DNA of 64,000 nt from Anaeromyxobacteraceae bacterium (GTDB lineage: Bacteria > Myxococcota > Myxococcia > Myxococcales > Anaeromyxobacteraceae): the NCBI GenBank assembly GCA_047602405.1, contig JASGHJ010000001.1, positions 960,001 to 1,024,000 of the forward strand, written 5' to 3'. Below are positions 38,798-57,746 of the stretch, in pieces. The position numbers and the translations under genes are program-made. How positions within the stretch are numbered: position 1 is the first letter of the stretch; the number at the start of each line of letters is the position of its first letter. A model generated the notes under the pieces. That model worked only from the letters and a program-made list of their open reading frames with translations. It was not told the origin of the DNA and did no database searches.

Positions 38798-38956
38798 TCC
38801 GGCGGGCGCAGGAGTCCGTCACCGACGCCGGCCGGAGGTACCACATGCCGACCCCGCGTTCCCCGGAGCGCGACCGGCGGGCAGATCAGCGCACCGCGCA
38901 GAATTCACTGGATGTCACGACCCCGGGGCGTGAGGCTGCGCGCGGGGGGAGACACC

Positions 38957-40303
38957 ATGCACGTGCACCGTTCTCTGGCCGCGGTCTGTGTCGCGTTCTT
39001 CGTCGCTGCCTGCGGAGGGGGAGGCACCGGGGAGCAGGGCGGTACGGTACCGCCCACCGGTGCGGCGAGGGCCGTCGCGCCCGGCGACACCGGCGTGCCG
39101 CTCGATGCGCCGCTCGTCTTCACGCTGCCGGCGGACGTGGACCCGTCGAGCTTCTCGGCCGCGAACGTCACGCTGCGGGGGCAGGTGAACGACGGCCCGC
39201 AAGCCTGGGCGCTCGACACCTCGCTCGACACGACGACGCGCAAGCTCACGGTCTCGCCGCACCGGGTGCTCGCGGCCGGCACGTTCTACACGCTCACCCT
39301 GCAGGACCTGAAGACCACGGCGGGCGCCGCCCACGCCGTCGAGCTCGGCTTCCGCTCGATGCTCAACCCGGTGCTCCGCGAGTACCGGCCCCACGACGGA
39401 CCTCCTCCCGGCTTCGTTCTGGAGCTGGGCTGGCGGATCGAGTGGGCCCGCGACGCCGCCGGCGGCGCGCTGGGCTCGACGCGCTTCTACTCGAAGGGAG
39501 CGGACGGGCGCTGGGTCACCGGCGACGACCCGGTGGTCGGCTACTCGACCGTGAGCGGCGGGACGGGACCCGGCGCGACGACGCTGGAGGAGCTCTTCGA
39601 CGGCGCCGGGGCCGACCTCACCTGGCACACGCCGGACGACATCCTCCGGGAGCGGGTCACCTCCGTTCGCGACGCCCACGGGCACGTGCTCCGGCAGCTC
39701 ACCCAGTCGCGCGGCAACGACCACGTGCTCGACACGGCGGACGACCTCTTCGCCTGCGTCGCACGCGTCGAGGATGCCCAGGGGCGCCTCACCGCGGAGG
39801 GCGTGTGTAGTCCCGGGCCGGACGAGACCTACTTCACCGCGGACGACACGCTCGCCGTCAACACGCGCTGGATCCGCGACGCGAACGACGAGGTCAGCGA
39901 GCAGCGGTTCTACGTCGCCGGCCCCGACGGGATCCAGGGTACGGCCGACGATCAGCTCTACTCGGTCCACACGTACACGCGGACGCCCGGCAAGGTCCTC
40001 GACAGGTTCTGGGGCGCCGGCGCAGACGGGATCTTCCCGAGCGCGGACGACCTCCCGCAGGCCTGGGACACCGACGAGCTCGACGCTCGGGGGCGAGTGC
40101 TCCGGTCGTCCGGGTACATCGGCAAGGGACCGGACGGCAAGGTCGGCACCGACGACGACGACGTCTACTACCGGACGAACTTCAAGTACGACACCAGCGG
40201 CGCGCGGACGTGGTCTCGGTTCGCTCATCGGGGTGCGGATGGGAAGATCGACACCTGGGACGACGACGTGGAGTACGAGCGCGAGTACCTGACCGATCGG
40301 TGA
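38957..40303 (+). CDS. Lipoprotein: Ig-like (Big_5-type) domain plus eight GxD(G)-x5-DD repeats
   Basis: FFVAA-C lipobox; PGDTGVPLDAPLVFT...LAAGTFYTLT; repeats such as GPDGIQGTADD and GPDGKVGTDDD. Confidence 0.75.
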   Translation: MHVHRSLAAVCVAFFVAACGGGGTGEQGGTVPPTGAARAVAPGDTGVPLDAPLVFTLPADVDPSSFSAANVTLRGQVNDGPQAWALDTSLDTTTRKLTVSPHRVLAAGTFYTLTLQDLKTTAGAAHAVELGFRSMLNPVLREYRPHDGPPPGFVLELGWRIEWARDAAGGALGSTRFYSKGADGRWVTGDDPVVGYSTVSGGTGPGATTLEELFDGAGADLTWHTPDDILRERVTSVRDAHGHVLRQLTQSRGNDHVLDTADDLFACVARVEDAQGRLTAEGVCSPGPDETYFTADDTLAVNTRWIRDANDEVSEQRFYVAGPDGIQGTADDQLYSVHTYTRTPGKVLDRFWGAGADGIFPSADDLPQAWDTDELDARGRVLRSSGYIGKGPDGKVGTDDDDVYYRTNFKYDTSGARTWSRFAHRGADGKIDTWDDDVEYEREYLTDR

Positions 40304-43986: not shown

Positions 43987-44676
43987 CTAGCCCCCCTGCT
44001 CCTCGCCACCGGACGGCGCGGCCACCGACACGCCCACCATCGCCGGCCTGAGCAGCCGGTCGTTCAGCGTCCAGCCGCGGGCGTGCTCGAGCACCACCGT
44101 GCCCGGGGCGTGCTCCGCGGTGGGCACCTGCATGAGCGCCTCGTGCCGGGCGGGGTCGAACGGCTGGCCCATGGCCGAGAAGCCCTTCACGCCGTGCTTC
44201 GCGAGCGCCTGCTCGAGCGAGGCGCGCACGAGCTTCACGCCCTCGGTCAGCTTGTCGCCGGCCGGCGCGGCCGCGAGCGCGCGGTCGAGGTTGTCGACGG
44301 CCGGGAGGATGTCCTTGAGCATCCGCTCGTTGCCGAACTTCTGGATCTCGTCCTTCTCCTTCAGCGCCCGCTTCTTGTAGTTCTCGAGGTCGGCCGCGGC
44401 GCGGAGCATCTTGTCGTGCTCGTCCTTGAGCTTCTCCATGAGCTCGCGGCCCTTCGCCTGCGAGAGCTCGAGCTGCGCCTTCAGGCTCGCGACCTCGGCG
44501 GGGTCGGCGCCCTCGCCACCGACCTCGACCGGGAGGCCCTCGTTGAGCTCGGACGCCGTCGCGGGATCACCGCCGCCGCTCTCGCGGGCGACGCGCTCGA
44601 CGGAGCGCAGGGCCTCGTCGATGGCGGCCTGCGCGATGTCCGCCTGGAGGGAGCTCTTCTCGGGCTGATCGGCCAT
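43987..44676 (-). CDS. grpE: Nucleotide exchange factor GrpE
   Basis: From [51 protein letters not shown]. Confidence 0.96.
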
Positions 44677-44899
44677 GTCGGTGTGCGGGTGAAACGGGGG
44701 TCGGGCCCTTCGTCCAGGAGGGACGGGGCTAGACCCGGAACCGTCATGATGACACGGCGCAGCCTCGCGGAACAAGGCGAGTTTTACGGCCCGGGAAGGG
44801 GGCCGTGGGCGGTCCTTCGACGCCTTGCGGCGCGCACGACGAGTCCGTCAGAAATGCCGCGCCGTCAGGCCGTCCCCGCCGACGGGCCCGGGTCCGGCC

Positions 44900-47491
44900 T
44901 TACCGGTTCGAGAAGGCCGTCGTCTGGAGCCCGTACCCGCGCACGAACACCGGGTCCGCGCCGTCGCCCGCCACGTCGGGGAGCTGGGCCGCCGCGGCGG
45001 CGTCGCTCGCGGGGAGCGCGAAGGGCAGCTTCCCGGTGCCAGCAAGGATGCCGAAGGCGACGTCCAGCGCGGTCTTGTCGCCGTACGGGTTCCCGGGGAG
45101 CGCCCCCGAGAAGTCGAGGTAGAGCGCGCTCACCTTGTAGGTGTCGGACAGCAGTTCCCCGACGACCGACGGACGCCAGGCGTCCACGATGACGACGAGC
45201 TGGGCCCTCGAGCCGGGCATGGCGTCGATGGCCGCCCGGGCGGCGGCGACGGGCGCGAGGATCTCGGCGTCGGTCGCAGCGTACGAGAGCGAGCCCGTCG
45301 GCAGCCCGAGCGCGCCCGCGTCCGGGTCGAGCGTCCAGGGCGCCTTCACGCGGACGAAGACGTAGTCGGAGCAGGCCATCCGCTCGGCGTCGGTGGTGAC
45401 CGGCGTGCTGGACCAGCCGCAGACTCGAGCGCCGTTCATCATCGAGGTGTAGCCGGACGAGACCGAGTTCACGTACTCGAGATCGAAGTCGCCCGCGAAG
45501 TAGGCGAAGTTCGAGAGCAGGAGGTACGCGGTCCCGGGCGGCGCCGGCAGCACCTTCAGCGTGCCGTTGCCGGCGTTGAAGGGGTCGTTCGTTTGCGTGC
45601 CGTTGCCGCCGCCGTTCAGGAACCCGGCGGGCTTCTGGACGTTCCGGAGGAGCACCATCCCGCCCCACATCGCGTACAGGCTCTGCTGGTACATCTCGGC
45701 GGTGTGGGTCGGCCCCCCGATGGTGCCGGGCGTCGTCGCGTCGACGTAGGGGTCCTCGAACAGTCCGAGCCGGAACGCGAGCGTAAGGAGCCGCATGGCG
45801 GAGGCCGTGACCCGCGCGTCGTCGAGGCCCGCCGCGGCGAGCGCGTCGAGGTCGCCGAGGCCGACGAAGAGGTCCACGCCCGCGCCGACGGCCTTCGCGA
45901 TGCGCGCTGGCCTCGTGAGCCCCTCGACCCCCCACGGCGTGCCGAGCGGCGCGAGCCCCGCGTCCTCGAGCACCCCCGCGGGGGCGACCACGAGCCCGCC
46001 GAAGCCGAGCCGATCACGCAGGAGGCCCGAGACGAGCGTCGCGTTGAAGGAGGCGCCCACCTGCTCGAGCGTCGCACCGTTCACGGCGCCGATGAACGCG
46101 TTCCAGGGCCCGGCCTCCGGGATGGCCCGGGCCGTCGAGACGCCCGCGACGCCGGCCGCGAGCGCGCCGTCGAACGCGCGCGCGTGCTCCTCGAAGCGGC
46201 CGCCGGGGTAGCTCGTGTACTTGCCCTTCGCGAGCCGCGCGTCGAAGCCACCCTTCGCGGCGCCGGCGCCCGGCCACTCCCCGAGGACGACCGCGACGCC
46301 GTTCCTGCCGAGCGCCGCACCCTGCGCGCCCTTCACGAACGCGGCCGCCATCGCCGAGGCCGTCGCGGAGTCCTCGCCGAAGGTCCACGGCGCGCCCGGC
46401 CACCGCGGATCGGTCGCGAGGTTCGCCGAAGGCTGGAGCACCATCCGGATGCCGAGCGCCCGATACTCTTGGGCCGCGAGCCGGCCCCAGGTCTCCACAC
46501 GGGCGAGGTCGCGCCCCGCGCCGAAGGCCACCTCGGGCGGCCAGTACGTGAGCCCGTTCGCGTGCGTACGCCCCGGCCCCTCGGTGTGCGCGGGCTCCGT
46601 GGAGAGGAGGAACGGTACGCCGAGCGGCGAGCCCTCGCAGCGCGCCTGGAGCGCGTTCGACCAACCCGCGAGCGACCGCAGGGCGCCGCCGGAATTCGTG
46701 GTGGTGGAGGGCCACCACGTGGTGGAGCCGGAGCGGACACCGGCGTCGAGGAGCGCAGCGGTCGCGGGGGCGAGGCCGGTCGCGCCGGCCGCGTGCACGT
46801 CGGCGAGCGCGGGGTGGGCGAGCAGCGCGCGGCGGCCCGCGGCGCCGAGGCGCGTGGCGAGGTCGGCCGCGCGCAGGGCGGGCGACAGCGTCCAGTCCTC
46901 GTACGGCGTGAGGGCGCCGTCGCCGTCGAGGTCCTTGAACCTGAGCGACACGTCGCAGGGGAAGGAGAGCCCGAGGTGCGTCCCCTGGAACTGCTTCGTG
47001 AACTCGCGAACGGCCTTGCCCGACGACGGATGCACCGTCACGTCCGGCGCGGCGGCCTGCAGCGCCGTGCGGAGCGCGACGTTCTCCGGGAGGTCGCACC
47101 AGGACAGGCACGTGCCTCCCCAGCAGGCCTCCTTCGAGCCGCAGTCCTCGTCCTTCCCGCACGCGGGGTAGACGAGCGGGACGCACACCTGCGAGACGCA
47201 GCCCTGGCCCGCCGGGCACTCCGGCGCGCCACGGCAGGGGATGAAGTAGTGGCAGTGGTCGTCCACGCAGTCGGCGCCGCCGCCCGGGAGCGGATTGCAG
47301 TCACCGACCTTGCGGCAGGCCCCGGCCTCGAGCGGAAGGCAGGCGCCGTCCGCGCAGTAGAGCTTCGCCGAGCAGTCCTCGTGGACCGTGCAGACCGGGC
47401 CGGGCTCGGGATCCGGCTTCGCGGGGTCGCTGCACGCGGCGAGCGCGGCGAGGAGTGCGGCGGCGAGGAAGAACGTGAGCCTGCGGTCCAT
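44900..47491 (-). CDS. Lipoprotein: Cys-rich repeats + glycoside hydrolase family 3 fold with degenerate catalytic motifs (copy A)
   Basis: From MDRRLTFFLAAALLAALAAC; FKDLDGDGALTPYEDW, EYRALGI, TDPRW, TFGED, PWGVEGL, LGLFEDPYVD, GKLPFALP. Confidence 0.82.
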   Translation of the reverse strand: MDRRLTFFLAAALLAALAACSDPAKPDPEPGPVCTVHEDCSAKLYCADGACLPLEAGACRKVGDCNPLPGGGADCVDDHCHYFIPCRGAPECPAGQGCVSQVCVPLVYPACGKDEDCGSKEACWGGTCLSWCDLPENVALRTALQAAAPDVTVHPSSGKAVREFTKQFQGTHLGLSFPCDVSLRFKDLDGDGALTPYEDWTLSPALRAADLATRLGAAGRRALLAHPALADVHAAGATGLAPATAALLDAGVRSGSTTWWPSTTTNSGGALRSLAGWSNALQARCEGSPLGVPFLLSTEPAHTEGPGRTHANGLTYWPPEVAFGAGRDLARVETWGRLAAQEYRALGIRMVLQPSANLATDPRWPGAPWTFGEDSATASAMAAAFVKGAQGAALGRNGVAVVLGEWPGAGAAKGGFDARLAKGKYTSYPGGRFEEHARAFDGALAAGVAGVSTARAIPEAGPWNAFIGAVNGATLEQVGASFNATLVSGLLRDRLGFGGLVVAPAGVLEDAGLAPLGTPWGVEGLTRPARIAKAVGAGVDLFVGLGDLDALAAAGLDDARVTASAMRLLTLAFRLGLFEDPYVDATTPGTIGGPTHTAEMYQQSLYAMWGGMVLLRNVQKPAGFLNGGGNGTQTNDPFNAGNGTLKVLPAPPGTAYLLLSNFAYFAGDFDLEYVNSVSSGYTSMMNGARVCGWSSTPVTTDAERMACSDYVFVRVKAPWTLDPDAGALGLPTGSLSYAATDAEILAPVAAARAAIDAMPGSRAQLVVIVDAWRPSVVGELLSDTYKVSALYLDFSGALPGNPYGDKTALDVAFGILAGTGKLPFALPASDAAAAAQLPDVAGDGADPVFVRGYGLQTTAFSNR

Positions 47492-47502
47492 GGTGTCGCC
47501 TC

Positions 47503-49920
47503 TCAGAAGTGCTGCGTCTCGAGCCCGTAGCCGCGCACGAAGGTCGCGTCCGCGCCGTCGCCGGGGACGTCCGAAAGCTGCGCCGCCGCGGCCTCGTCGC
47601 TCGCGGGCAGCGCGACCGGCAGCTTCCCGGTGCCGGACACGACCCCGAAGATCACGTCGAGCGCGGCCTTGTCGCCGTCCGGGTTGGCGGGCCGCGCGCC
47701 GGACCAGCTCACGTAGAGCGCGCTCGGGGCGTACGCGAGCACCTCGCTCACGACCGGCGGGCGGCCGGCGTCCACGATGACGACGAGCTGCGCCTTCGAG
47801 TCCGGGTGCGCGTCGAGCGCGGCCCGCGCCGCCGCCACCGGCGCGAGCCAAGAGGGGTCGGTGCCCGCATAGGTGAGCGAAGGGGTGGGCAGCGCGAAGG
47901 GCCCCGAGTCGGGGTCGAGCGCCCACGGCGCGCGGATCCGGACGAGCACGTAGTCGGAGGCCGCCATCTTCTCGGCCTCGGTCAGCGACGCGAGCGTCGG
48001 CACGCGGTTCACGAGCACGCCGTAGCCGGCGGAGACCGAGTCGACCCAGTCGAGGTCGAAGTCGCCGGCCACGTAGAACCACGTCGGCCGGCCCGTCCCC
48101 ATGTACTCCATGCCGACGGGCGCCGGCAGCACGCGCAGGGTGCCGTTGCCGGCGTTCCGGTGGTCGCCGGTCTGCGTGCCGTCGCCGCCTCCGTTCAACC
48201 ACCCGGCGGGCTTCGGAACGTTCCGGAGCAGCACCATGCCGCCGTACATCGCCCGCAGCGCCTCCTCGCGCGCGGCGTAGCTCCCGATCCAGGCGTCGGG
48301 GTCCGCGTACGGAACCTCGAAGAGCCCGAGCTGGAACATGAGCCGCAGCACCTTTCGCGCGGCGCCAGCGACCTGGGCCTCCGAGAGGTGCGCGTCGTCG
48401 ATCGCCGTCAGGCTCGCGAGCCCGAGGAACTGGTCGACGCCCGCGCCCACCGCCTGCGCGATCCGCTGCGGGCGCGTGAGCGCCTCCACGCCCCACGGCG
48501 CGCCGAAGGGCGCGAGCCCGGCGTCCTCGATCGCGCCCGGCGGGGCGAGGACGAGCCCGGAGTGGCGGCCGAGGAGCTGCGCGTTGAACGACGCGCCCGC
48601 CTGCTGGATCTTCTGCCCGAGGAGCGGGTCGGCGAGGGTGCCCCACGTGCCGTACGCGGGGATGGCGTAGCCGGGCATGAGCCCGGCGGCGCCGGTGCAG
48701 AACGCGGCCGCGTGGGCCTCGAAGCGGTTGCCGTCGTAGGCGGTGTACCGCCCCTTCGAGAGCCGCGCGTCGAGGCCTCCCCTCGCGGCCCCCGCGCCGC
48801 GGTAGCCAGCGAGCACGACCGCGAGGCTCGTCCTCCCGAGCGTCGTCCCTTGCGCGCCCTCAACGTACGCCCCGGCGAACCCGGTGGTGGTCGCGAGGTC
48901 CTCGCCGAAGGTCCACGGCACGCCCGGCCAGCGCGGGTCGGTCGCGAGGTTGCCCGCGTGCGAGACGACGAGGCGCACGCCGATCGCGCGGAGCTCGAGC
49001 GCGGTGTACTTCCCGAAGGCGGAGGCCCGGCCCTGGTCGAAGCTGGCGGCGATGGCGAGCTCGGGCGGCCAGGCGGTGAAGCCCGGCGAGCGGACCCGGC
49101 CCTCGCCGTCGACGTGCGCCGGCGCCGAGGAGAGCAGGAAGGGCACGCCGAGCGGCGCGGCCTCGCAGCGGGCCTGGAGGTAGTTCGCCCAGCTCCTCCG
49201 CGAGAACGGGGTCGAGGAGGTCGCGGCCGTCTGGCCCGCGCGGACGCCCGCGTCGACGAGCGCGCGCGTGGCCTCGTTCGGGAGGAGCGACGACGAGCTG
49301 GGCACGTCGGAGAGGACCGGGTGCGCGAGGAGCGCGCGCAGGCCGGAGGGGCCGAGCCGCGAGGCGAGGTCGGTGACGCGCTCGTCGGTGGTGAGCGTCC
49401 AGTCCTCGTAGGGCTGGAGCGCGCCGTCGCCGGAGAGGTCCTTGAACTTCAGGCCCACGCCGCACAGGACCGCCGGGTTCCCGGCCTCGCTCGCGAAGGT
49501 CCTCCGGACCGTGATGACCGTCTTGCCGGATCCCGGGTCCACGACGAGCGCGGGCTGGGCCGACGCGAGCTCGGAGACCCGCACCAGGTTCGGCGCGAGG
49601 TCGCACTCCGGCACGCAGCGCAGCTCGAGGCAGGGCCCCTCGGTGGTCCCCCCGCAGGCCTGCTCGACGCACTGCTCGTCGGCGGCGCAGTCCGCGGCGC
49701 GCTCGCACCGGCCGGCCGGAAGCGGCGCGCACAGCCCGGTCTCGCAGCCGAAGCCCGCCGGGCAGTCCCCGTGGTCCACGCAGACCGTCTCACACGCCTC
49801 ATCGCCCGGGCAGCGGGGGTGCGCGGGGCCGTGCCGCCCAGGGCCGTCGCAGGCGGCGAGCGCCGCGCCCAGGGCGAAGAGCAAGAGGAGCCTGGAGGTG
49901 GCGCGGGGCGGGCGTGGCAT
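47503..49920 (-). CDS. Lipoprotein: Cys-rich repeats + glycoside hydrolase family 3 fold with degenerate catalytic motifs (copy B)
   Basis: ALAA-C lipobox; FKDLSGDGALQPYEDW, TDPRW, TFGED, PWGVEAL, GKLPVALP; collinear paralogue of copy A. Confidence 0.82.
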   Translation of the reverse strand: MPRPPRATSRLLLLFALGAALAACDGPGRHGPAHPRCPGDEACETVCVDHGDCPAGFGCETGLCAPLPAGRCERAADCAADEQCVEQACGGTTEGPCLELRCVPECDLAPNLVRVSELASAQPALVVDPGSGKTVITVRRTFASEAGNPAVLCGVGLKFKDLSGDGALQPYEDWTLTTDERVTDLASRLGPSGLRALLAHPVLSDVPSSSSLLPNEATRALVDAGVRAGQTAATSSTPFSRRSWANYLQARCEAAPLGVPFLLSSAPAHVDGEGRVRSPGFTAWPPELAIAASFDQGRASAFGKYTALELRAIGVRLVVSHAGNLATDPRWPGVPWTFGEDLATTTGFAGAYVEGAQGTTLGRTSLAVVLAGYRGAGAARGGLDARLSKGRYTAYDGNRFEAHAAAFCTGAAGLMPGYAIPAYGTWGTLADPLLGQKIQQAGASFNAQLLGRHSGLVLAPPGAIEDAGLAPFGAPWGVEALTRPQRIAQAVGAGVDQFLGLASLTAIDDAHLSEAQVAGAARKVLRLMFQLGLFEVPYADPDAWIGSYAAREEALRAMYGGMVLLRNVPKPAGWLNGGGDGTQTGDHRNAGNGTLRVLPAPVGMEYMGTGRPTWFYVAGDFDLDWVDSVSAGYGVLVNRVPTLASLTEAEKMAASDYVLVRIRAPWALDPDSGPFALPTPSLTYAGTDPSWLAPVAAARAALDAHPDSKAQLVVIVDAGRPPVVSEVLAYAPSALYVSWSGARPANPDGDKAALDVIFGVVSGTGKLPVALPASDEAAAAQLSDVPGDGADATFVRGYGLETQHF

Positions 49921-50033
49921 CGGAAAGATCCCCGGGCCGCGGGGCGGAAGTGCCCCGGCGGCCCAATGCCCGGACCTGCATCATCTCCGGAACGCGCGCG
50001 GGCGCAACGCTGCCGTTCGCCGCACCCGTACCC

Positions 50034-50074
50034 CGGGTGAGAGCCCGGGCGGCGACGCCTGGGGCTTCTCGCCC
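50034..50074 (-). terminator. GC-rich hairpin downstream of the CheA-like gene
   Basis: cgggtgaga-gccc ... gggc-t-tctcgcccg arms with an inner stem; no clear U tract. Confidence 0.35.
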
Positions 50075-50114
50075 GCGAGCTCCTGCGCGCAGCCCGCCCG
50101 GTCCCCGCTGCGGC

Positions 50115-51953
50115 TCAGGCTGCGGCGGCCTGCACGAGCGCCCGGACGTTCAGGATCAGGCCGACCTGTCCGGCCCCGTGGATGCCCGCGCCGCCGAACA
50201 GCTCGACGTGCTCGAGCCCGGACCCCAGGCTCTTCACGACGACCTGCTGCTGCGCGAGGACGTCGTCGACGAGCAGCCCGAACCGTCGCTCCTCCGACTC
50301 GAGCACCATCACGAGCGCCTCGGCGGGGTCGTGGTGTGCGTCGGGGATCTCGAGGAGATTCCCGAGCCGCACGAGCGGGAGGATCCGCCCACGCATCGAG
50401 AGCGCCTCGTGCCCGCCTGCGCGGGTCTTCACCATGTCGGGGGCCGGGCGGATCGACTCCACGACCGCGAGGGTCGGGACGAGGAAGCGCTCCTTGCCGC
50501 AGGCGATCAGCATGGCGTCGACCGTCGTCAGCGTGAGCGGCATCACGAGCCGCACGGTCGTGCCGGCCCCGGGCGTCGTGGTGGCGTGCACGCGGCCGCG
50601 CAGCCCCTCGAGCCGCAGCTTGATCGCGTCGAGCGACGGCAGCGGGCCGCCGCCGTCCGGGTCGCCGGGGGGCGGCCACGCGCCGGGCGCGAGGAGGAGC
50701 GCGTCCATCGCCTCGTCGTCCGCCGGGGCCTGGCCGGCGGCGCGGAGCCGCTCGACGACCGCCGCGCGGTCGATCCCCGCCCCGTCGTCCGACACCTCCA
50801 CGACCACCTGGCCGGCCTCGGTCCGCGCCGAGATCCGCACGGTGCCGCGGCTGGGCTTCCCGGCGGCCTCGCGGTCGGCGCGCGGCTCGATGCAGTGGGC
50901 GATCGCGGCGCGCACGAGCGCGAGCAGCAGGTCGGCGAGGTTGTCCACGATGAGCCGGTCGAGCTCGGTGGCGTCACCGAGGGTGACGATCCGGACCTGC
51001 TTGCCCGCGCGCCGCGCGAGATCGCGGGCGCCGCGGGAGACCCGCTGGAAGAGCTCGCTCGCGTGATCCATCCGGAGGCGGGTCCCGGCGTCGGTGAGAT
51101 CGCGGGTGACCTTGGCCAGCTGGCCCATCAGCCTGCGGCCGGCCTCCGAGGCGGCGCCCCGGAACTCCGGCACGCTCCGCAGGGCCGACTCCACCACCAC
51201 GAGCTCGCCGATGGCCTCCATGAGCAGGTCGAGCCGCGCCTGCTCGACGCGGGTGAGGACGTTTCGCTGGCCGCCGACGGGGCCGTCGGCCCCCCGCGCG
51301 TGGCGCGCCTGCGCGCGGAGCGCCCGGCCCACGAGCGCCGCGTCCACGAGGTGGGAGGCCACGAGCTCCTCACCCAGGCGCCGGCCGCTCTTCACCTGCG
51401 CCTCGAGCGCGCGGTCGATCACCGCCTGCGGCACGTCGAAGGGTGGGCCCGCGAGGAGCTCGCCCAGCCGCTCGCCGCCGCGCACCTCGGGCAGCGGCGC
51501 CTCGTCCACGTCCGCGCCCGCCCGGAGCGCCGCCAGCCGCTCCACCACGGGCGCGGCCTCGGTCCCGTCCGGCAGCGCCGTGCCTGCGTCGAGGTGGACG
51601 AAGATCTCGTCGAGGTAGGTCCGGACGATGCCGCCCGTGTCGTAGAGCGCGTCGAGCCCGGCGCCGCCGATCGCCCGGTTCCGCTCGCGGCTCCAGCGCA
51701 GGAGCGCGTGCGCCCCGGCCGTCAACGGCGCGATGCCGTCGAGCCGCAGCGCCGCGGCCCGGGTGGCGAGCGTCATGTACCCGTCGTCGAGCGCCTGCAG
51801 GTTGAAGAGGTGCGGGTCGCGCTCGGCGAGGAGCAGCTGCTCGTCCAGGCCGTCGAGCACCTCGGCGGTCTCGGCGGCGAACTGGACGAGCTGCTCGGCG
51901 CGCGAGGTGGCCTCCTCGGCGCCGGTGGGGCCGGGATTCGAGCTGGGGTCCAT
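50115..51953 (-). CDS. Degenerate CheA-like protein (pseudokinase) with a tandem MshEN-like motif
   Basis: CheA domain order (Hpt-like, dimerisation RLDLLMEAIGELVV, HATPase, CheW), but the Hpt His site reads YMTLAT and the N-box reads ALVRAAIAHC. Confidence 0.82.
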   Translation of the reverse strand: MDPSSNPGPTGAEEATSRAEQLVQFAAETAEVLDGLDEQLLLAERDPHLFNLQALDDGYMTLATRAAALRLDGIAPLTAGAHALLRWSRERNRAIGGAGLDALYDTGGIVRTYLDEIFVHLDAGTALPDGTEAAPVVERLAALRAGADVDEAPLPEVRGGERLGELLAGPPFDVPQAVIDRALEAQVKSGRRLGEELVASHLVDAALVGRALRAQARHARGADGPVGGQRNVLTRVEQARLDLLMEAIGELVVVESALRSVPEFRGAASEAGRRLMGQLAKVTRDLTDAGTRLRMDHASELFQRVSRGARDLARRAGKQVRIVTLGDATELDRLIVDNLADLLLALVRAAIAHCIEPRADREAAGKPSRGTVRISARTEAGQVVVEVSDDGAGIDRAAVVERLRAAGQAPADDEAMDALLLAPGAWPPPGDPDGGGPLPSLDAIKLRLEGLRGRVHATTTPGAGTTVRLVMPLTLTTVDAMLIACGKERFLVPTLAVVESIRPAPDMVKTRAGGHEALSMRGRILPLVRLGNLLEIPDAHHDPAEALVMVLESEERRFGLLVDDVLAQQQVVVKSLGSGLEHVELFGGAGIHGAGQVGLILNVRALVQAAAA

Positions 51954-56066: not shown

Positions 56067-57746
56067 ATGGAAGAGTTCGAGATCGACAGAGAGGCGCTGC
56101 TCGGTGCGTTCCTCGCGGAGTCGGAGGAGGTCCTCGCGCGGATGGAGCAGCAGCTCGTCGCGCTCGAGGCCGCGCCCGGTGACGAGGAGGCCCTGAACGC
56201 GGTCTTCCGCGACGCGCACACGATGAAGGGCGGGTCGTCCCTCGTCGGCTTCGACGCGGTGAAGGAGCTCGCCCACGACATCGAGCAGGTGCTCGAGCGG
56301 CTGCGCAAGCACGAGCTCGTCGCGACGAACGCGGTGGTGACCCTGCTCCTCCGCTCGGTCGACGTGCTCCGCGCCGCGCTCACCGACGCCACCGCCGGCA
56401 AGACCGCCCCCTCCGAGGCCACCCTCGCCTTCCGCCGCAGCCTCGCCGAGGCCGCCGCCGACGAGCCCACGCCGGGCGCGGCCCCCGCCCAGGCCGGCGC
56501 CGCGGCCCCCGCGGAGACGGGCGCCGCGCCCGCCGCCGCCGCACCGGGCCAGGCGCACGCCCAGGCCCGCACGCTCCGCGTCGACGTGAACCGCCTCGAC
56601 CGCATGCTCGACCTCTCCGGCGAGATCGCGATCGCCCGGGGCCGGCTCACCGAGCTCCTCGAGCGCGGCGAGGCGAGCGGCGAGGAGGTCCTCGCGGCGC
56701 ACCGCGAGACCGACCGGCTCTACCTGGATCTCCAGGAGCTCATCATGAAGGCCCGGATGGTGCCGATCGGGCCGGTGTTCTACCCGCACGCGCGCACGGT
56801 GCGGGACCTCTCCACGGCCCAGGGCAAGCACGCCCGCCTCGTGGTGGAGGGCGCCGACGTCGAGGTGGACACCTCGGTGGTCGAGCAGATCCGCGACCCG
56901 ATCCTCCACATGGTCCGCAACGCCCTCGACCACGGCGTCGAGACCCCGGACGCGCGCCGCGCCGCCGGCAAGGACCCGATGGCCACGGTCACCCTGCGCG
57001 CCTTCCAGGAGGCGGGCTCGATGGTGATCGAGGTGCAGGACGACGGCGGCGGCCTCGACCGCGCCCGCATCGCCGCGAAGGCCGCCGCGAAGGGCATCCT
57101 CGAGGACCCCGCCCGGGCGAGCGACGAGGAGATCGCCCGGGCGATCTTCGAGCCGGGCTTCTCCACGAACGACGTGGTCACCGACGTCTCGGGCCGCGGC
57201 GTCGGAATGGACGTCGTGCGCCGCAACGTGGAGGCGCTGCGCGGCTCGGTCGGCGTGTCGAGCGCCCCCGGCAAGGGCACGACCATCTCGATGCGCGTGC
57301 CGCTCACCCTCGCCATCATCCAGGGCTTCCGCGTCCGCATCTCCGACCAGACCTACATCCTGCCGCTCGACACGGTCGTCGAGTGCCTGGAGCTGCCCGT
57401 CGGCGGCGACGCGAACGCGGTCACCGGCGTCATGAACGTGCGCGGCAAGCCGCTCGCCTACCTGCGCCTGCGCGCGATGTTCGGCCTGCCGGCCCGCGCC
57501 GGCGCGCGGGAGAACATCGTGGTGATCCGGCACGGCGGGCACACCGCCGGGCTCGCGGTCGACGCCCTGCTCGGCGAGTCGAGCACGGTCATCAAGCCGC
57601 TCGGCGCGATGTTCCGGAACCTCCCCGGCGTCGCGGGCTCCTCCATCCTGGGCGACGGGCGGGTGGCGCTGATCCTGGACGTCGGCGGGCTCGTCCGCGA
57701 GACGCTCAAGCGCACGGCGTCCGAGCTCGAGGCGCGGGCGGCCTGA
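56067..57746 (+). CDS. cheA: CheA, catalytically intact, no P2 domain
   Basis: FRDAHTMKG, HMVRNALDHG, DDGGG, FEPGFST, SGRGVGMDVV, CheW domain. Confidence 0.95.
   Translation: MEEFEIDREALLGAFLAESEEVLARMEQQLVALEAAPGDEEALNAVFRDAHTMKGGSSLVGFDAVKELAHDIEQVLERLRKHELVATNAVVTLLLRSVDVLRAALTDATAGKTAPSEATLAFRRSLAEAAADEPTPGAAPAQAGAAAPAETGAAPAAAAPGQAHAQARTLRVDVNRLDRMLDLSGEIAIARGRLTELLERGEASGEEVLAAHRETDRLYLDLQELIMKARMVPIGPVFYPHARTVRDLSTAQGKHARLVVEGADVEVDTSVVEQIRDPILHMVRNALDHGVETPDARRAAGKDPMATVTLRAFQEAGSMVIEVQDDGGGLDRARIAAKAAAKGILEDPARASDEEIARAIFEPGFSTNDVVTDVSGRGVGMDVVRRNVEALRGSVGVSSAPGKGTTISMRVPLTLAIIQGFRVRISDQTYILPLDTVVECLELPVGGDANAVTGVMNVRGKPLAYLRLRAMFGLPARAGARENIVVIRHGGHTAGLAVDALLGESSTVIKPLGAMFRNLPGVAGSSILGDGRVALILDVGGLVRETLKRTASELEARAA

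Follow-up and report, generated by a model that had tools for sequence, protein, structure and literature searches.

A tandem pair of nucleophile-less GH3 lipoproteins in an Anaeromyxobacteraceae genome and the pseudo-enzyme clade to which they belong

The tandem pair and its altered active site

The window analysed here is a stretch of 64,000 nucleotides from an Anaeromyxobacteraceae bacterium (assembly GCA_047602405.1, contig JASGHJ010000001.1, positions 960,001 to 1,024,000). On its minus strand lie two genes in tandem, encoding lipoproteins of glycoside hydrolase family 3 (GH3) that lack the catalytic nucleophile. Copy B (P0001, 47503..49920, 805 aa) was defined by its open reading frame (ORF), a match to Pfam PF00933 and alignment; copy A (P0002, 44900..47491, 863 aa) was assigned by PF00933, an AlphaFold2 (AF2) model and Foldseek. 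The genes are co-oriented, their products share 52% identity, and 11 nt (47492..47502) separate the stop codon of B from the ATG of A. An earlier reading of this DNA, made without database searches (the sequence-only reading), had described two collinear paralogues at this spacing and had called them pseudo-glycosidases; both descriptions are borne out.

Each protein starts with a signal peptide and a lipobox, as had been noted, ending at Cys24 in B (49849..49920) and at Cys20 in A (47432..47491). The lipobox Cys is present in 51 of the 54 rows of the clade described below. The residue at +2 is Ser in A and Asp in B; for Myxococcus no conserved outer-membrane sorting signal is known, according to the accessible text of PMC3222651. 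We infer that the proteins are lipidated and located at the outer membrane. A stalk of Cys-rich repeats follows (B, residues 37-106, 49603..49812; A, residues 34-128, 47108..47392, DUF7107-like), and the Cys-rich repeats seen earlier correspond to 14 and 17 Cys between lipobox and core in the two copies. The stalk is presumably a spacer, because other clade members have Thr/Gly linkers or PF18998 at the same place. The remainder consists of a barrel and a second alpha/beta domain (domain 2), the GH3 fold. Both copies exceed the PF00933 cut-off, and the AF2 model of copy A (predicted local distance difference test, pLDDT, 85.9) has the enzymes 9UL7 and SN243 as its top Foldseek matches (ranks 1-11), in agreement with the GH3 scaffold proposed from the sequence.

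The catalytic residues were located by alignment to SN243, in which Asp415 is the nucleophile, Asp331-His333 the acid/base and Arg136, Lys318 and His319 contact the sugar (available part of bioRxiv 2022.04.25.489410). The nucleophile position is occupied by Pro in both window copies (A Pro504, 45980..45982; B Pro460, 48541..48543). The sugar-binding Lys318-His319 is replaced by Gly-Glu or Ala-Gly (in A Gly404-Glu405, 46277..46282), and the Arg of the PRWxR motif, which binds the sugar at subsite -1, is Gly in both. The His of the acid/base dyad has become Arg in both copies (in A Asp417-x-Arg419, 46235..46243). The acid/base had not been covered by the sequence-only reading; this subfamily uses an Asp-His dyad for it, and the His of the dyad is thus also lost. 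All motifs which that reading quoted were found in A and B, including the short barrel deletions in B; these are of 4 and 7 residues and remove the otherwise invariant Arg492. The DLxGDG motif that it had listed as a feature of the pair is indeed there. However, the same loop is present in the active 9UL7 and SN243 and is therefore not distinctive of the window pair.

With these substitutions A and B are very probably catalytically inactive. As assessed from the alignments the old sugar pocket is dismantled, and glycan binding at subsite -1 is unlikely because most of the sugar-binding residues there are gone.

A clade without the nucleophile

A homologue search returned 113 proteins. The best 51 (at least 45% identity to A) all lack the nucleophile; in the other 62 both the Lys-His and the Asp are visible. 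A residue census was made of 54 clade rows against 22 hand-picked intact relatives. The nucleophile position of the clade is Pro in 53 rows and Ala in one, never Asp, whereas all 22 intact relatives have Asp. The dyad His is Arg (50 rows) or Lys (4 rows) in the clade against His in 22/22, and the dyad Asp is kept throughout (54/54 and 22/22). The Lys of the Lys-His pair remains in 2/54 rows and its His in 25/54, against 22/22 for each in the intact relatives; the corresponding figures for the pocket Tyr are 43/54 and 22/22, and for the equivalent of SN243 Arg136 1/54 and 20/22. In an unbiased profile search the nucleophile Asp was present in 139 of 151 aligned rows, and the 12 rows without it belonged to clade members or fragments, apart from one that was misaligned and one with Glu.

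The sequence-only reading had considered that an acidic residue from the VLED/AIED segment might take the place of the nucleophile. In the alignment these acids fall at Asp421 of SN243, six positions beyond the nucleophile, and both sites vary among the 54 rows (E37 D13 N3 R1 and D44 N6 E2 T1 A1). Neither is therefore a replacement nucleophile.

In trees built with FastTree and under LG+G4 (midpoint roots only; one tree excluded two partial proteins, one frameshifted ORF and one distant GH3B) the clade forms a single branch with support 99-100. A and B lie together in a nested, long-branched subclade (support 100; branch of P0001 0.44-0.48), and catalysis was therefore lost long before the A/B duplication. 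Loss before duplication had been suggested from the similar substitutions in the two copies; the trees and the residue counts over 54 rows in fact date it to the base of a wide clade. An alignment with characterised GH3 enzymes and a search for orthologues with the same substitutions had also been proposed. Both were run: the losses were confirmed against SN243 and recur across the 54-row clade.

The nearest relatives of the clade are the partly degenerate P0225, P0300 and P0339, which group with it (support 99), followed by the intact P0224 and P0226. In P0225 and P0300 the nucleophile Asp is still there but the Lys-His and the His of the dyad are not; in P0339 the nucleophile is replaced by Glu. 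All three have in common with the clade a Pro-Gly-Glu/Ile-Pro-Tyr-type motif in domain 2. This order of partly degenerate and then intact neighbours suggests stepwise loss. An origin of the clade as a tandem duplicate of the operon gene GH3A (see below) was rejected, as P0224/P0226 and the partly degenerate proteins are closer in the trees. P0225, P0300, P0339 and a further protein, P0231, are of another residue composition, with partly degenerate GH3 sites, and are probably several paralogues in one genome.

The clade was present in 15 of 401 sampled genomes of the phylum and in 8 of 92 of the family, and the named homologues point to Anaeromyxobacteraceae and other Myxococcota. A genome scan gave at least 4 clade loci among the 80 loci listed. 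A metagenome scan with a generic pattern gave no clade member among the 80 loci listed, which were all at 26-40% identity, and a plasmid tblastn search at E 1e-60 gave no match. Clade members are labelled beta-glucosidase in the sources; a nucleophile Pro together with Asp-x-Arg at the dyad would be a simple diagnostic. A literature survey on inactive or pseudo-enzyme GH3s and on the operon described below, outside whose scope most subscription papers lay, gave no account of the clade or of the operon, and the accessible parts of PMC5481569 and PMC13450635 describe no natural inactive GH3s.

The home operon and the surroundings of the window pair

A third clade member of the window genome, P0117, lies on another contig (C2) inside an operon of the order GH3A-GH3A-pseudoGH3-GH3B-porin-EIIA/HPr/EI-EIICB (G000:C2:2891110-2907695, minus strand; L089:2111-18696). 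This family home had been missed by the sequence-only reading. The last genes encode a phosphotransferase system (PTS), of which the EIICB has two EIIB domains and scores above the glucose-specific NCBIfam cut-offs. Synteny was compared over 18 loci covering the 15 clade-bearing genomes. The pseudo-GH3 gene stands immediately before GH3B in 15/15 genomes; where the contig reaches far enough, the porin and EI are downstream in 14/14 and EIICB in 13/13. GH3A is upstream in 12/13, being absent in G388, and the G055 locus is frameshifted throughout. The intact GH3 genes of the operon have retained their catalytic motifs: GH3A has all motifs in 12/12 rows, and GH3B has the nucleophile and acid/base motifs at 12/12 loci and the KH motif, by pattern, at 11/12.

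In its model (pLDDT 91) the predicted porin (P0118) is a barrel of 16 strands in which loop L3 is long, and its Foldseek matches are OmpT, chitoporin and PorB at 10-17% identity. P0118 itself has no Pfam or NCBIfam match; some homologues carry PF13609, and one, P0145, is labelled Spirochaetes. The porin was found in 14 of the 401 phylum genomes, all of them among the 15 that carry the clade. An operon for sugar uptake that relies on a predicted porin and a glucose PTS, and not on SusC/D, is apparently undescribed for myxobacteria. Four genomes (loci L200, L206, L214, L215) have a second EIICB gene of glucose type upstream of the operon, and in two of these a gene for a sigma-54 response regulator or the like stands in between. 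Upstream genes at several family-level loci encode an AraC regulator, HAD hydrolase or phosphofructokinase.

This arrangement bears on the possibility that the dead GH3 is a protein partner, which would bind the intact GH3B (as a heterodimer, chaperone or allosteric subunit) or dock on the porin, with the domain-2 insert as the interface and no sugar binding. The loss of most -1 subsite residues fits such a role, as do the fixed position before GH3B, with gaps of -4 to 66 nt at 10 of the 13 loci with an assigned start, and a distribution identical with that of the porin. The window genome moreover has a displaced, degenerate GH3B paralogue as well as displaced pseudo-GH3 copies. However, short gaps are common across the whole operon, G073 has displaced clade copies yet a single GH3B match, and the porin is duplicated in neither the window genome nor G073. 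We regard a role as scaffold or partner as possible but rather unlikely.

The displaced GH3B paralogue (G000:C1:1261378-1263696, minus strand; L243:9378-11697) is 51-56% identical and is a second GH3 lipoprotein of degenerate type in this genome: its Lys-His is replaced, Glu occupies the nucleophile position and the reading frame breaks around residue 552. Beside a transposase-like ORF near it are two adjacent minus-strand genes (L243:6163-9359), encoding a protein of 598 aa with what we take to be a metallopeptidase-like HExxH motif, and one of 468 aa that presumably has a metallo-beta-lactamase-like fold.

Back in the window, copy B is co-oriented with an upstream gene at a distance of 194 nt. 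This gene (50115-51953, minus strand) encodes a CheA-like protein in which a domain scan found CheW, HATPase and dimer domains and no Hpt match, unlike the CheA at 56067-57746, which has one; its orthologues occur in 3 of 37 genus genomes. The sequence-only reading had connected the pair with this CheA-like gene and had listed adhesion among its possible roles. An adhesin or chemosensory accessory co-expressed with the CheA-like gene would fit the co-orientation and the short distance, and no promoter or terminator-like site was found in 44600-50300, which weighs little as 1.4 terminators are expected in shuffled sequence. However, the position between the CheA-like gene and grpE is common to the window genome and G073 only; in G073 a MASE1 histidine kinase without counterpart in the window stands in between, before the copy-B orthologue P0420. 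In G137 the CheA-like gene is followed by an unrelated gene and there is no clade member, and 13 of the 15 clade-bearing genomes showed operon-type copies only. The link to chemotaxis is therefore unsupported and was rejected; adhesion is likewise not supported, and we give a role of either kind hardly any credence.

Positions 38912-40303 (plus strand) of the window encode a protein of 463 aa that has an N-terminus of lipoprotein type, together with a Big_5 domain and repeated G-x-D-G motifs. Its gene is inserted in the dnaK-dnaJ region and is missing from the matching stretch of G073.

Domain 2, selection and likeness to known systems

Over 20-residue windows, conservation in the clade peaks in domain 2 (residues 621-660, 0.87-0.88). 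The peak lies within a clade-specific insert, in A residues 621-686 (45434..45631), that is largely missing from intact relatives. Clade-specific aromatic residues occur at 624, 656, 663, 669, 673 and 710. Four members of the B lineage are known, of which P0001 and P0421 are full length and P0420 and P0262 have no barrel. P0420, the copy-B orthologue in G073 (279 aa, L198:8280-9119, plus strand, 4 database records), and P0262 are in-frame fusions of a signal peptide, without the lipobox Cys and thus without the lipoprotein signal of A and B, to domain 2, which in B comprises residues 552-805 (47503..48267). P0262 is sister to the full-length P0421 (100/99), so two separate losses of the barrel, at one and the same boundary, seem to have occurred. 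Microhomology was rejected as the cause of repeated deletion: it amounts to 6 bp in the window copy, and 70 of 75 control windows have one as long. Copy A is 86% and 80% identical to its orthologues in the barrel and 77% and 67% in domain 2; B is 77% identical to its orthologues in the barrel and 80-82% in domain 2. In A it is thus the barrel that is better preserved, and B is heading toward domain 2 alone.

Selection was estimated as the ratio of nonsynonymous to synonymous substitution rates (dN/dS). By maximum likelihood (ML) the operon pseudo-GH3 genes gave 0.05-0.11 and their intact neighbours 0.05-0.085. For A against its G073 orthologue ML dN/dS was 0.14 at a dS of 0.98, similar in barrel and domain 2, and domain 2 of B gave 0.10; in the same genome pair the adjacent CheA-like gene, with a similar dS, gave 0.049 and dnaK 0.017. 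The proposal that the genes were kept by selection thus holds, the safe reading of these estimates being purifying selection about 3 times weaker on the window copies than on the CheA-like neighbour. At clade-conserved columns the window copies deviate at 31 and 35 of 231 positions, and the operon copy P0117 at 14 of 215. The window pair would be a relaxed, diverging offshoot.

Alternatively, the two copies could be redundant and slowly decaying, under selection that is weak or was relaxed recently, with the C2 operon copy serving the family function. The position outside the operon, the long branches and the raised dN/dS of A relative to the CheA-like gene all agree with this, as do the loss of Arg492 from B and the two orthologues without a barrel. 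Against it, neither a broken frame nor a dN/dS near 1, the marks of a pseudogene, was found in A or B (ML 0.10-0.14); 3 proteins of A type and 4 of B type have unbroken frames, with 61-92% identity in domain 2, and both barrel losses are in frame, keep the signal peptide and share a domain boundary, the microhomology in the window copy being nothing unusual. Decay of this kind seems improbable.

A pocket rebuilt for another ligand or reaction (a non-Koshland activity or an anionic ligand) would make use of the invariant Asp417 and of Arg308, Arg419, Lys422 and Glu320, whose conservation is new. These residues are conserved in 50-54 of the 54 clade rows and different in intact relatives, and the operon barrels are under strong purifying selection. 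However, there is no invariant acid at or near the nucleophile position, Asp417 is ancestral, and the barrel is missing from two B orthologues, so we consider a rebuilt pocket very improbable.

A and B are displaced paralogues of a conserved pseudo-GH3 clade whose main copy is in the operon, and the explanation we tentatively prefer is that these proteins are non-catalytic accessories capturing sugar at domain 2. The operon would release glucose from beta-glucosides or glucans at the envelope, and the sugar would pass the predicted porin and be imported by the PTS. The pseudo-GH3 would be an obligatory non-catalytic accessory of the operon, its aromatic-rich domain-2 surface capturing beta-glucoside chains and presenting them to the intact GH3B and the predicted porin. 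The substrate class, probably beta-glucosides, is deduced from the neighbouring genes, and binding of sugar rather than protein by domain 2 is likewise presumed.

Several observations weigh against this explanation. In the operon copies the constraint on the barrel is as strong as that on domain 2 (ML 0.045-0.046 versus 0.035-0.056), which together with the retained pocket His (25/54) and Tyr (43/54) indicates that the barrel still matters in the operon copy. The conserved aromatics of domain 2 might just as well form the core of the fold or a surface for contact with another protein. P0262 comes from a single 7.5-kb metagenome contig, and the barrel-less forms, having lost the lipobox Cys, could be decaying. 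Since the genomes are related and the operon probably moves as one unit, the co-occurrence of pseudo-GH3 and porin is partly linkage and gives no independent support for binding. Copies A and B are not in the operon, deviate from the clade and evolve about 3 times faster, and the family role may not hold for them. Finally, NG86 gave dN/dS values above those of ML (0.45 for A, 0.32 for domain 2 of B), deeper pairs are saturated and the G + C content of third codon positions is 0.96-0.99; the synonymous distances are therefore unreliable.

The closest characterised enzymes are the GH3 beta-glucuronidase SN243 (PDB 7QE1) and the GH3 beta-glucosidase 9UL7, which share subfamily and fold with the clade (phmmer E 1e-43 and 1e-69), as well as the N-terminal DLxGDG..YEDW loop and the dyad Asp. 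The clade differs from both in its nucleophile Pro, in the change of the dyad His to Arg or Lys and in the loss of the Lys and both Arg, and it adds an N-terminal hairpin subdomain and the domain-2 insert. The operon porin resembles the Vibrio chitoporin VhChiP and the general 16-strand porins (as far as the accessible text of PMC13578368 describes them) in its barrel and long L3, and differs from them in its low identity and, for P0118, in the absence of a Pfam or NCBIfam match.

As a system, the nearest parallel is BACOVA_03431 of the Bacteroides ovatus PUL-XylL, a lipoprotein of GH10 that is inactive and binds xylan at the surface (available part of PMC4491172). Likewise a glycosidase homologue without nucleophile, it carries a lipoprotein signal and belongs to a glycan-utilisation locus with active enzymes; in our case the operon copy is inside such a locus in 15/15 genomes and the two window copies are outside. 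However, BACOVA_03431 is of GH10 and not GH3, the clade comes from Myxococcota, and its locus has a predicted 16-strand porin and a PTS. Binding and surface exposure have been demonstrated for BACOVA_03431, whereas the clade is known here from sequence and predicted models. A SusC/SusD pair was not found in the operon locus, which has the GH3s, predicted porin and PTS instead, and the clade is therefore not a member of a BACOVA_03431-type system. It is conceivable, if doubtful, that the operon is what Myxococcota have in place of the utilisome of Bacteroides, independent of TonB: glucosides would be taken up by a system centred on the porin and coupled to the PTS, with the dead GH3 as its dedicated lid or adaptor. 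The working part of this protein would have moved from the barrel to a new domain-2 module, twice freed of the barrel and exported in the copy-B lineage. The finding defines a GH3 pseudo-enzyme clade with a seemingly undescribed uptake operon attached. Its graded sister proteins and natural barrel deletions offer ready-made controls for the step from enzyme to non-catalytic accessory, and for the domain that carries the new job.

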